A stretch of DNA of 64,000 nucleotides, taken from the NCBI RefSeq assembly GCF_024502345.1, contig NZ_JALDNN010000001.1, one strand, 5' to 3'. Shown here piece by piece: positions 20,190-49,595 of the stretch. Numbering within the stretch: the first letter of the stretch is position 1; every line of letters begins with the position of its first letter. The notes beneath the pieces are model-generated. The model saw nothing but the letters and a program-made list of their open reading frames with translations, did not search any database and had not been told where the DNA came from. Both the position numbers and the translations under genes were made by a program. The DNA comes from Escherichia coli. GTDB lineage: Bacteria > Pseudomonadota > Gammaproteobacteria > Enterobacterales > Enterobacteriaceae.

Positions 20190-20232
20190 ACGGTCCCCTC
20201 GCCCCTTTGGGGAGAGGGTTAGGGTGAGGGGA
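20190..20232. repeat. GC-rich hairpin repeat, copy 1 (resembles E. coli boxC-class intergenic repeats)
   Basis: ACGGTCCCCTCGCCCCTTTGGGGAGAGGGTTAGGGTGAGGGGA; identical 43-mer recurs at 27897..27939. Confidence 0.8.
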
Positions 20233-20301
20233 GCAGGGAAGCGCCAGTGGGAATTACCCTTTGCTCGCATTGTCGAATAAATCACTTCGTCATCACTCTG
20301 A

Positions 20302-20327
20302 AACCGGGGAAACCCGGTTTTTTTATC
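20302..20327 (+). terminator. Rho-independent terminator downstream of trpS
   Basis: ACCGGGG-aaa-CCCGGT followed by TTTTTTTAT. Confidence 0.75.
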
Positions 20328-20392
20328 CTCATTTGCAATAATCCGAAAAAATGTGAAGCGCCTCGCCGTTTCCACATCTCACAGTTGCCACT

Positions 20393-20414
20393 TATCTTCA
20401 TTTTAATGAAGATA
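20393..20414. promoter_or_regulatory. Inverted repeat TATCTTCAT-N4-ATGAAGATA upstream of yhfZ (candidate operator)
   Basis: Perfect 9-bp arms, about 30 bp upstream of the yhfZ start codon in an AT-rich promoter-like region. Confidence 0.4.
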
Positions 20415-20442
20415 TAAACATTCATTTTATTGAAAATATATT

Positions 20443-21348
20443 ATGCGTCGAACGTTTATCAAAAAAGAAGGCGTCGTTATCACGACGCTGGCCCGTTATT
20501 TGTTGGGTGAAAAATGCGGTAATAGGTTGAAAACCATAGATGAGCTGGCAACTGAATGCCGTTCATCCGTTGGCCTGACGCAGGCCGCGTTGAAAACGCT
20601 GGAATCAAGCGGAGCGATACGGATTGAACGCCGTGGGCGCAATGGCAGTTATCTGGTCGAGATGGATAACAAAGCATTGCTGAGTCATGTGGATATCAAC
20701 AACGTGGTATGTGCGATGCCTTTGCCCTATACCCGCTTGTACGAAGGTTTAGCGAGCGGATTGAAAGCCCAGTTTGATGGCATTCCTTTTTACTATGCGC
20801 ATATGCGCGGCGCGGATATTCGCGTGGAGTGTTTACTTAACGGCGTGTATGACATGGCGGTGGTTTCCCGACTGGCGGCGGAAAGTTATCTCACGCAAAA
20901 AGGGTTTTGCCTCGCGCTGGAGTTGGGGCCGCACACCTACGTTGGCGAGCACCAGTTGATTTGCCGTAAAGGCGAGTCCGCAAACGTGAAGCGCGTGGGG
21001 CTGGATAACCGTTCGGCGGATCAGAAAATCATGACCGATGTTTTTTTTGGCGGTAGTGATGTGGAACGAGTCGATCTCTCTTATCACGAGAGTTTACAAC
21101 GCATTGTTAAAGGCGATGTCGATGCGGTGATCTGGAACGTGGTGGCGGAAAACGAACTGACCATGCTGGGATTAGAGGCGACGCCGCTCACAGACGATCC
21201 GCGATTTTTACAGGCCACCGAAGCCGTGGTCCTGACGCGAGTCGATGATTACCCAATGCAACAACTGCTGCGTGCCGTTGTAGATAAACACGCCCTGCTT
21301 GCCCATCAACAACGGGTGGTGAGTGGGGAACAGGAACCCAGTTATTAA
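20443..21348 (+). CDS. yhfZ: Putative transcriptional regulator YhfZ (N-terminal winged-HTH, C-terminal ligand-binding domain)
   Basis: 301-aa ORF; HTH-like segment TIDELATECRSSVGLTQAALKTLESSGAIRIERRGRNGSYLV. Confidence 0.85.
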   Translation: MRRTFIKKEGVVITTLARYLLGEKCGNRLKTIDELATECRSSVGLTQAALKTLESSGAIRIERRGRNGSYLVEMDNKALLSHVDINNVVCAMPLPYTRLYEGLASGLKAQFDGIPFYYAHMRGADIRVECLLNGVYDMAVVSRLAAESYLTQKGFCLALELGPHTYVGEHQLICRKGESANVKRVGLDNRSADQKIMTDVFFGGSDVERVDLSYHESLQRIVKGDVDAVIWNVVAENELTMLGLEATPLTDDPRFLQATEAVVLTRVDDYPMQQLLRAVVDKHALLAHQQRVVSGEQEPSY

Positions 21349-21364: not shown

Positions 21365-21727
21365 ATGGAAACCAGACTCAACCTGCTTTGCGAGGCAGGC
21401 GTTATTGATAAGGACGTCTGCAAAGGCATGATGCAGGTCGTCAACGTACTGGAAAAAGAGTGCCATCTGCCGGTGCGCAGTGAGCAAGGAACGATGGCGA
21501 TGACACATATGGCGAGTGCACTGATGCGCAGTCGCCGTGGTGAAGAAATTGAGCCATTGGATAACGAGTTGCTGGCAGAACTGGCGCAATCCAGCCACTG
21601 GCAAGCCGTTGTGCAATTGCATCAGGTGTTGTTGAAGGAATTCGCACTGGAAGTTAACCCGTGTGAAGAAGGCTATTTGCTGGCCAACCTTTATGGATTA
21701 TGGATGGCTGCTAACGAAGAGGTTTGA
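21365..21727 (+). CDS. yhfY: PRD-domain protein YhfY
   Basis: ORF 21323..21727; start taken at ATG 21365 (METRLNLLCEAGVIDKD...), 120 aa. Confidence 0.8.
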   Translation: METRLNLLCEAGVIDKDVCKGMMQVVNVLEKECHLPVRSEQGTMAMTHMASALMRSRRGEEIEPLDNELLAELAQSSHWQAVVQLHQVLLKEFALEVNPCEEGYLLANLYGLWMAANEEV

Positions 21728-21757
21728 AGCTCCCGACAAATCCACGTCGCACAACCT

Positions 21758-46044: not shown

Positions 46045-46677
46045 TTAACGAGTGCCGTAAACGACGATGGTTTTACCGTGTGCGGAGATCAGGTTCTGAT
46101 CTTCAAGCATCTTCAGAATGCGTCCCACGGTTTCACGAGAACAGCCGACAATCTGACCGATTTCCTGACGGGTAATTTTGATTTGCATACCGTCCGGGTG
46201 AGTCATAGCGTCTGGTTGTTTTGCCAGATTCAGCAGAGTCTGTGCAATGCGGCCCGTCACGTCGAGGAACGCCAGGTTGCCCACTTTCTCTGAAGTGACT
46301 TGCAGACGACGCGCCATCTGTGCAGACAGACGCATCAGAATGTCCGGGTTTACCTGAATCAATTGGCGAAATTTTTTGTACGAAATTTCAGCCACTTCAC
46401 AGGCGGTTTTCGCACGTACCCATGCGCTACGTTCCTGGCCCTCTTCAAACAGGCCCAGTTCGCCAATAAAATCACCCTGATTCAGATAGGAGAGGATCAT
46501 TTCTTTACCCTCTTCGTCTTTGATCAGCACTGCCACAGAGCCTTTAACGATGTAGTACAGCGTTTCCGCTTTTTCACCCTGGTGAATAAGCGTGCTCTTG
46601 GATGGGTACTTATGAATGTGGCAATGAGACAAGAACCATTCGAGAGTCGGGTCTGTTTGCGGTTTGCCAAGCACCAT
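46045..46677 (-). CDS. crp: cAMP receptor protein (catabolite activator protein)
   Basis: 210-aa [80 protein letters not shown]...[17 protein letters not shown]. Confidence 0.98.
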
Positions 46678-48579: not shown

Positions 48580-49595
48580 GATTTCGCCTCCAGATACGTT
48601 GTTAACCAGTCAGGAATGCGTGACTCCAGCCACATTTGCGGATGAAGTAATGTACCGCCAATAAAGCCAACATGACCGCCATGTTCAGTCAGTTGATACT
48701 CCACCTGCGGGGGGAGACTTTCCGGTTTCGGGATCACCTGATGATCCATAAACGGATCGTCTTTGGCGTGAATAATCAGCGTCGGTTTGGCGATCCGATT
48801 GAGCATCGGCATGGCGCTACACTGACGATAATAGTCGATAGCGTCAGCGTAGCCGTGAATTCTGGCGGTGATGAGATCGTCAAATTCACGGATGCGACGT
48901 ACCGATTTTAACTGCGCGAGATTAATCGGCAGTGTTCCGGGGTAGGCTGCCAGCTTGCGCGCGGCATTGGCTTTTAACAGGTTCAGCAAGTAACGCTGAT
49001 AAACGCGGGAAAAGCCCTTTTCCATATGGTAACTACAGGCCTCCAGCATAAACGGCGCAGAGACAATCACCGCCGCATCAACCGGGAGATCATTGCCTTC
49101 TTTTGCCAGCAAACAGGCCAGCATATTACCGCCGAGCGAATAGCCGACGGCAGCCGTTGGCGCATGACCAAATTCGCGTTGCAGCCAGCGTAAAAACCAA
49201 CTGGCGTCTTCGGTTTCGCCCGAATGGTAAATGCGGTGCATACGGTTTGGTTCACCGCTGCATCCGCGAAAATGCATCACCACGCCCAGCCAGCCGCGCT
49301 TTTGCGCCGCCTCAACCAGACCGTGGGCGTAAGGGCTATTGAGACTGCCTTCCAGCCCGTGAAATACCACTAAACGCGGTTTATGCCGCGCCTGTGCAGG
49401 GTTTTCACTCCACGCGAGATCGACAAAATCGCCGTCGGGCAACTCCAGCCGCTGCCAGTACGGGGTGAATTTCACCTGACGACGAAACAGACGCGGCAGC
49501 ATAGTTTGTAGATGACAATTGCTAAAGCCGCGCATAGGGGTGAATTCAGCACTGCTGCTGAATTCATTGGCATCGGTCGTCGTTATCTGCGCCAT
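48573..49595 (-). CDS. yheT: Alpha/beta-hydrolase-fold protein YheT
   Basis: 340-aa ORF; GxSxG nucleophile elbow (VGYSLGGNM). Confidence 0.9.

Follow-up and report, generated by a model that had tools for sequence, protein, structure and literature searches.

We propose that the palindrome just upstream of yhfZ in Escherichia coli (20393-20414) is one of three operators for YhfZ. Comparisons of sequence make it likely that YhfZ represses its own expression from a CRP-dependent promoter at this location, and that the third operator serves yhfX-yhfS, farther downstream in the same gene cluster. All coordinates refer to the window, the whole stretch of DNA that was analysed (64 kb).

The palindrome upstream of yhfZ is longer than originally described. 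The letters of the window at this location (site 1, no strand assigned) are TATCTTCATTTTAATGAAGATA. As the sequence-only reading had stated, they form a perfect 9-bp inverted repeat with a 4-nt spacer, and a repeat search of the sequence extended the arms to 10+10 perfect positions around a 2-nt spacer (TATCTTCATT-TT-AATGAAGATA), with the core TTCA-N6-TGAA. The end of site 1 is 28 nt from the ATG of yhfZ, in agreement with the distance of about 30 bp given in that reading.

It is extremely improbable that site 1 is a functionless palindrome that arose by chance in AT-rich promoter DNA. Short palindromes are commoner in AT-rich intergenic DNA than in average sequence, but when the 268-nt intergenic region was shuffled 2000 times with its dinucleotides preserved, arms of at least 10 bp with a spacer of no more than 8 nt were obtained only 6 times (and arms of at least 9 bp 21 times). 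Perfect inverted repeats with arms of 9 bp or more and a spacer of no more than 8 nt number only 12 in all 64 kb of the window. Ten of these are GC-rich, and the only two that are AT-rich are 20393-20414 and 21757-21782 (site 3, below). In addition, there are three copies of the dyad per locus, and the half-sites were conserved in dozens of genera while the flanks diverged. These conservation data, from sequence comparison, effectively refute the chance reading. Other long, perfect inverted repeats in the window include ACGTTGGCGTGA-AGATGC-TCACGCCAACGT (28808-28837; 12-bp arms), at the junction of two minus-strand open reading frames, and TGAATTCAGCA-CTGC-TGCTGAATTCA (49541-49566; 11-bp arms), within a minus-strand open reading frame.

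The genes around the palindrome include one for a predicted DNA-binding regulator and those for its predicted targets. In the window, dam-rpe-gph-trpS are followed by yhfZ (20443-21348, plus strand), which encodes a protein of 301 amino acids with a Pfam HTH_41 winged helix (aa 24-71) and a solute-binding-like YhfZ_C domain (aa 75-301). YhfZ matches the NCBIfam equivalog YhfZ_full with 372 bits and is named GntR family transcriptional regulator YhfZ. The Pfam GntR model PF00392 did not match E. coli YhfZ, even when its N-terminal 76 aa were searched with E-values of up to 10 allowed, and its matches to distant YhfZ homologues were weak or faint. The recognition helix starts with S42-V43-G44-L-T-Q47, and the available structure (PDB 2OZZ) spans aa 74-301 only. 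The next gene, yhfY (21365-21727, plus strand), is co-transcribed with yhfZ and encodes a small PRD-domain protein (weak PRD match; RefSeq annotation); PRD genes also come after yhfZ homologues at distant loci. The predicted target operon, yhfX, yhfW, php, yhfU, yhfT, and yhfS (21811-27852, plus strand), encodes, by domain search, PLP racemase-like, metalloenzyme mutase, PTE, DUF2620, YhfT membrane, and PLP aminotransferase-like proteins. The same yhfX-yhfS gene set adjoins distant yhfZ homologues.

There are two more copies of the dyad at this locus. The sequence-only reading had noted further half-sites after the palindrome, and these were indeed present: positions 20421-20440 are a direct copy of 20397-20416 (90% identity, offset 24 nt), and this region contains a second, imperfect dyad, AACATTCA-TTTTAT-TGAAAATA (site 2, 20417-20438, no strand assigned). 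Site 2 is exactly 24 nt after site 1 and ends 4 nt before the ATG of yhfZ, and is predicted to be a YhfZ operator that would cover the transcription start and the short 5' UTR. Site 3 (21757-21782, no strand assigned) is a perfect 10+10 dyad, TAAATATTCA-AAAAAA-TGAATATTTA, in the yhfY-yhfX intergenic region, inside the gene cluster and approximately 1.37 kb downstream of the promoter dyads. It is a predicted YhfZ operator for yhfX-yhfW-php-yhfU-yhfT-yhfS. We found no sigma70-like promoter near site 3 with a promoter scan.

The three sites have the core TTCA-N6-TGAA in common, and their consensus is about wATmTTCA-N6-TGAAkATw. Using a scoring matrix trained on non-Escherichia loci only, we obtained scores of 32.6 bits for site 1, 31.7 for site 3, and 27.4 for site 2; the next best score in the 64 kb was 7.9. 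The pattern TTCA-N6-TGAA itself had one extra match in the window, at 46569, with approximately one expected by chance. This match was taken as chance because it is in the coding sequence of crp and has a GC-rich spacer. Across 383 kb of loci, the pattern was found almost only at the three syntenic places.

The half-sites of the dyads are conserved among Enterobacterales. A genome scan recovered yhfZ orthologues from Escherichia, Citrobacter, Klebsiella, Pluralibacter, Buttiauxella, Cedecea, Lelliottia, Chimaeribacter, Superficieibacter, Serratia, and Photorhabdus, and 37 distinct upstream sequences, anchored at the ATG, made up a footprint profile (loci L028, L033, L034, and L036 were left out). 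In the upstream part of these 37 sequences, the columns TGTGA (20353-57), TC.C (20364-67), TTT (20370-72), and TTG (20385-87) were fully conserved. In the dyads, full or almost full conservation was found for TA-T.TTCA and TGAAGATA at site 1 and for ATTCA and TGAA at site 2. In contrast, the N6 spacers varied, as did the DNA around the sites, so that the orthologous promoters have conserved half-sites with a variable spacer. The offset from site 1 to site 2 was exactly 24 nt in every sequence with both exact cores. The orthologues from Serratia and Photorhabdus, which are outside the profile, each retain one of sites 1 and 2. Site 3 was nearly invariant across all of the Enterobacterales loci, including its A7 spacer, and its flanks diverged completely.

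The same pattern was found within E. coli. The allele in the window and a K-12-type allele (L001, positions 2596-2653) are 83% identical over the 58-nt promoter stretch (20385-20442), and all 10 of the differences between them are in dyad spacers and flanks, with none in the TTCA/TGAA half-sites. This stretch is unusually polymorphic within E. coli: the best match was only 80-90% identical in 2388 of 5081 matching records.

The dyads are found in different places when the gene order is different. In loci of the Pluralibacter gergoviae type (L033, L096, L097), the order is yhfY-yhfZ-yhfX, and the dyads are before yhfY (L033, position 3521) and between yhfZ and yhfX (L033, position 4959). The motif moves with the gene order, and therefore it marks the heads of gene units and not one particular gene. 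A separate TTCA-N6-TGAA match, with a GC-containing spacer (ACGCTTCATsnnAATGAAGAGG), is in the 3' end of yhfY in Citrobacter and Buttiauxella (at about 1389/5207 in L009-L011 and about 1338-5214 in L025, L026, L028, and L032) and is absent from E. coli. This match may reflect a coincidence of codons or an additional, weak site.

The pattern of substitutions indicates that the dyads are recognized by a protein. There were no compensatory double changes among the distinct sequences of site 1 (n=18) or site 2 (n=21), and pair 4/19 was mismatched in 7 of the 18 and in all 21, respectively. At site 3, many genera have TGATT in place of TGAAT in the right arm, and the left arm does not change to match. 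Half-sites that are kept, spacers that vary, and the absence of compensation are together the signature of a protein site and not of a hairpin, and they support, at the level of sequence, the suggestion in the sequence-only reading that the palindrome is bound by a dimeric regulator.

We consider it very improbable that the inverted repeat works as a nucleic-acid hairpin, be it a structure in the 5' UTR that hides the ribosome-binding site, a BIME-related attenuator or terminator, or a sequence targeted by YhfY, the PRD protein. Site 1 does form a 9-bp stem in the predicted fold of RNA from 20385-20450 (-9.8 kcal/mol, z = -1.9), and YhfY has a PRD domain, like BglG-type antiterminators. However, this fold is modest, and beyond the frequent uncompensated mismatches, the stems are AT-only, there is no T-run, and a terminator scan called no terminator at either dyad region. 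That is, the palindrome has neither the GC-rich stem and T-run nor the compensated pairing of a terminator or attenuator. Based on the promoter proposed below, site 1 would be upstream of the transcription start and outside of the RNA. Lastly, YhfY matched PRD only, and other domains (e.g., RNA-binding) were not matched.

The one mention of regulation found in the searchable literature is from a published screen that placed the region upstream of yhfZ in a cluster of BIME-type attenuator candidates (PMC2965389), a further point in favor of a hairpin. We rejected this grouping as an account of the palindrome as it concerns a GC-rich repeat upstream instead. That repeat is an imperfect palindrome at about 20190-20235, after trpS (TCCCCTCGCCC...GGGTGAGGGGA), and corresponds to the BIME upstream of yhfZ in PMC2965389. 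A 326-nt query that included it matched E. coli genomes at a median of 5 places each, with query positions 1-58 as the multi-copy part, and the repeat is missing from the trpS-yhfZ spacer in many strains. Unlike this BIME, the 58-nt stretch with sites 1 and 2 (20385-20442) was found at a median of 1 place per genome, and it does not belong to the REP/BIME repeats. Between the two, the terminator scan called a terminator-like hairpin with a T-run after trpS (20300-20321, plus strand), which bounds the yhfZ control region on its upstream side.

Site 1 appears to overlap the core promoter of yhfZ. A -35-like hexamer, TTGCCA (20385-20390, plus strand), matches TTGACA at 5 of 6 positions, and its TTG is invariant across loci. 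The hexamer that follows after 17 nt, GAAGAT (20408-20413, plus strand), has an A at position 2 and a T at position 6, and we infer from this geometry that it is the -10. The putative -10 coincides with the right half of site 1, such that site 1 would cover the -10 as well as the promoter spacer, and the implied transcription start would be at about 20420-20422. TTGCCA-17-GAAGAT matches at 8 of 12 positions, below the threshold of the scan (9 of 12). On the plus strand, the scan called only TAAACA-16/18-TATATT/TATTAT, ending at or inside the ATG. These calls were rejected as the yhfZ promoter because the start would fall within the coding sequence.

Promoter elements with this geometry were also found in other lineages. 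Those without site 1 retain TTGCC, 17 nt, and a hexamer, as seen by eye: GAAGAT in L102, CATGAT in L113, and CATCAT in L122. Three loci with both sites 24 nt apart (L105, L106, L111) have TTGATT-17-GAATAT, also by eye. Several distant lineages keep site 2 as the sole site. Near-consensus promoters are present in L124 (TTGACA-16-TATCAT), L131 (TTGACA-17-TATATT), and L050 (TTGACA-16-TAAACT), and in these the core of the dyad begins 7-17 nt past the -10. The dyad in these three loci is thus at or just past the transcription start, and therefore in the position of a repressor.

A conserved CRP-like element is upstream of the putative promoter. This predicted site, AAATGTGA-AGCGCC-TCGCCGTT (20350-20371, no strand assigned), matches the left half of the CRP consensus at 5 of 5 positions and the right half at 3 of 5. 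Across the 37 sequences, TGTGA was invariant, and the right half, TCGCC, had its T, C, and C conserved. The center of the element (20360.5) would be at approximately -61.5 from the proposed start, the position of a class I CRP site. L102, L113, and L122 have TGTGA-N6-TCnCA at about the same distance from TTGC, and the CRP-like site was kept in all of the enterobacterial loci and in several more distant gammaproteobacterial-like loci. The crp gene itself is in the same window (46045-46677, minus strand). The sequence-only reading had overlooked this conserved CRP-like site, the third site before yhfX, and the probable overlap of the palindrome with the core promoter.

We suggest a mechanism in which YhfZ is a negative autoregulator. 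A YhfZ dimer would place one wing-helix in each half-site, with the centers of the half-sites 10 bp apart, or one helical turn. At site 1, it would occupy the promoter spacer and the -10, and at site 2 the region from +1 to about +18 together with the weak ribosome-binding region. Bound YhfZ would cover the promoter and start, and so would exclude or trap RNA polymerase, repressing yhfZ-yhfY. Site 3 could mediate the same repression of yhfX-yhfS, or DNA looping to these genes, although looping is speculative. CRP-cAMP bound near -61.5 would activate the promoter, and some ligand of YhfZ_C would relieve repression, perhaps with a contribution from YhfY, the PRD protein.

Two features of the dyads are not explained by this simple arrangement. 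If binding were cooperative in a simple, side-by-side manner, then sites 1 and 2 would be expected to be in phase, but they are 24 nt apart (approximately 2.3 helical turns). The invariance of the A7 spacer at site 3 is a constraint outside the operator model. The conserved offset, or the constraint at site 3, may reflect overlapping signals, higher-order oligomers, or looping.

YhfZ might bind these operators as an activator, or with a dual function, for example by remodeling a suboptimal promoter from a position between the -35 and the -10, or by recruiting RNA polymerase at site 3. The scan did not pick up the weak core promoter of E. coli, and a promoter is unrecognisable near site 3, such that yhfX might depend on an activator for its transcription. 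If the -10 were GATATA or TATAAA, then the spacer would be 20-22 nt, resembling that of promoters that need DNA distortion. However, the dyad is just past the -10 or start in three independent lineages with near-consensus promoters, site 2 is over the proposed start and the ribosome-binding region, and the conserved CRP-like site already supplies an activator. Based on these observations, we think that activation by YhfZ is unlikely.

The motif accompanies genes for distant relatives of YhfZ. The 120 matches listed in a search for homologous proteins were all at least 71% identical, and the distant relatives were drawn from a HMMER search that gave 668 family representatives. Contigs were recovered for several of these, and more came from a metagenome scan. 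Relatives with 33-61% identity, on contigs with 27-59% GC, have TTCA-N6-TGAA directly upstream (e.g., L042, L043, L044, L046, L050, and L100-L124), often with a second or third copy before the next gene. Viral contigs were also scanned for YhfZ relatives, and none were confirmed.

The sequence of the motif co-varies with the recognition helix. The relatives have two main classes of helix, S-V/I-G-x-x-Q, as in E. coli, and (A/G/S)-R-G-T-V/I-Q. Within 200 nt upstream of the gene, TTCA-N6-TGAA was present at 59 of the 62 loci of the V/I class and at none of the 12 loci of the R class, whereas TACA-N6-TGTA was present at 0 of 62 and 7 of 12, respectively. The three exceptions in the V/I class are the Pluralibacter-type loci, in which the site is before yhfY. 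Near matches were found in two of the five R-class loci that lack an exact TACA-N6-TGTA: L129 (AACA..TGTA) and L049. These loci are phylogenetically non-independent, and we estimate that they represent approximately 15 lineages of the V class and 8-9 of the R class. In the loci compared, the switch of the motif from TTCA/TGAA to TACA/TGTA accompanies the change from Val/Ile to Arg in the first turn of the recognition helix. The motif thus co-occurs with the regulator gene in distant taxa and co-varies with residues that read DNA, and both findings support, from comparative evidence, the earlier suggestion of autoregulation by YhfZ.

The operators of the Arg class have the form (G)TACA-N6-TGTA(C) and were seen in L045, L047, L048, L126, L128, L131, and L132. 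In L047, the next gene encodes a PTS IIB (sorbose-type) component and not one of the yhf enzymes. There is also a third class of helix, G/S-N-G-T-I-Q, with Asn for Arg/Val, in L051 (GC 67%) and 10 representatives. Neither a TTCA- nor a TACA-type dyad was recognizable upstream in L051, and the Asn class may have a third specificity. A clear dyad was not found in L052 (in which yhfZ is last in the operon), L130, or L127.

The change in the motif is consistent with contacts made by related regulators. In FadR-DNA complexes, a helix Arg is in contact with a guanine in the GT/AC core. When an R-class homologue is aligned to a FadR-family winged helix (PDB 8pqm, E = 9e-4), its helix Arg falls at the S-R of the latter. 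The contact between Arg and guanine in FadR fits the change of the half-site from G to A (TGTA to TGAA) when Arg becomes Val.

Binding of the palindromes by another protein, either a global regulator (the CRP/FNR family, ArgR, or a nucleoid protein) or another product of the cluster, is improbable. The geometry of the dyads, 4/5-N6-4/5, is that of CRP sites, and AT-rich sequence could attract nucleoid proteins. However, the half-sites are unlike those of CRP (TGTGA/TCACA) or FNR (TTGAT/ATCAA), and their orientation is opposite to that in ARG boxes (TGAAT-N4-ATTCA). The motif stays with yhfZ-family genes in unrelated organisms, both AT-rich and GC-rich, and its sequence co-varies with a residue in the helix of YhfZ, and the 64 kb, which includes other operons, has no further matches to the matrix. 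By domain search, YhfZ is the sole product of the cluster with a DNA-binding domain. We also compared the dyads by eye to the known E. coli motifs of CRP, FNR, ArgR, Cra, KdgR, MetR, TyrR, NsrR, IHF, EvgA, and RcsB, and none fits in both orientation and spacing.

The proposed YhfZ system resembles the systems of the GntR/FadR family. In systems of the FadR, PdhR, and NanR type, a winged-helix dimer sits on an inverted repeat at its own promoter or that of a target. YhfZ likewise has an N-terminal winged helix, a C-terminal effector domain, and a predicted palindromic operator that would overlap the promoter and is consistent with autoregulation. A GT/AC signature is typical of the operators of this family. 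The Arg-class relatives of YhfZ, which align to the FadR-family winged helix, have it in their motif, GTACA-N6-TGTAC, whereas the E. coli sites do not (TTCA/TGAA), and the canonical helix Arg is Val43 in E. coli YhfZ; a GT...AC core was found only with the Arg-class relatives. Additionally, the effector domain of YhfZ is like a solute-binding protein (YhfZ_C; PDB 2OZZ) and not of the FadR, HutC, MocR, or YtrA type, the E. coli protein matches HTH_41 and not PF00392, and YhfZ has a stand-alone PRD partner.

The dyads also share features with other well-known sites. CRP sites have the same two half-sites of 4-5 bp and 6-bp gap, a geometry that suits an HTH dimer bound along one DNA face, but the palindrome is not a CRP site: cTTCA/TGAAg matches at only 2 of 5 positions per half, and the CRP-like element is a separate one, 30 bp upstream. 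The operators of lac (O1/O2/O3), gal (OE/OI), and deo likewise include several dyads per locus with a CRP-dependent promoter, which in yhf is predicted. In contrast to those systems, the regulator is from a different family, looping is speculative, and the tandem sites are 24 bp apart, a non-integral number of turns. ARG boxes are also AT-rich, with TGAAT/ATTCA words in tandem near the promoter. The yhf dyads are nevertheless not ARG boxes: the half-sites are reversed, the internal gap is 6 nt and not 4, and the tandem spacing is 24 nt and not 21 bp. A reading of TGAA...TTCA across sites 1 and 2 has a gap of 10 nt, not 4, and the motif tracks yhfZ and not arginine genes.

We found nothing on binding by YhfZ, or on its operator or regulon, the transcription start, or control by CRP, in the searchable literature, and no report there of an inducer or substrate of the yhfZ-yhfS cluster. 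The predicted YhfZ operator is thus absent from the searchable literature and is an element of an ordinary kind. More tentatively, YhfZ and its relatives may be a distinct GntR-like branch that combines a winged helix with a sensor like a solute-binding protein and a stand-alone PRD partner. In this branch, one change in the helix would have reprogrammed specificity (Arg for TGTA, Val/Ile for TGAA), and in Enterobacterales three operators, two of them 24 bp apart over the core promoter and an invariant one 1.4 kb downstream, would control yhfZYXW-php-yhfUTS, possibly with looping and possibly coupled to PTS phosphorylation through YhfY.

The conservation of the yhfZ-yhfS cluster extends from E. 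coli to distant bacteria, both AT-rich and GC-rich, and the cluster includes the gene for the structurally solved, functionally orphan protein Php ('phosphotriesterase homology protein'). If our proposal is correct, then the operators would be a direct handle on the inducer, and hence on the substrate of Php and its neighbors. The motif gives a predicted regulon, yhfZY and yhfX-yhfS, and a design for reporters in screens for inducers. It also gives a specificity rule for the family, Val/Ile with TTCA versus Arg with TACA, that is testable with a point mutant and a base swap. The mechanism would be that of an ordinary repressor and operator, and we believe that its value is practical rather than conceptual, as a handle on an orphan and widely conserved operon.
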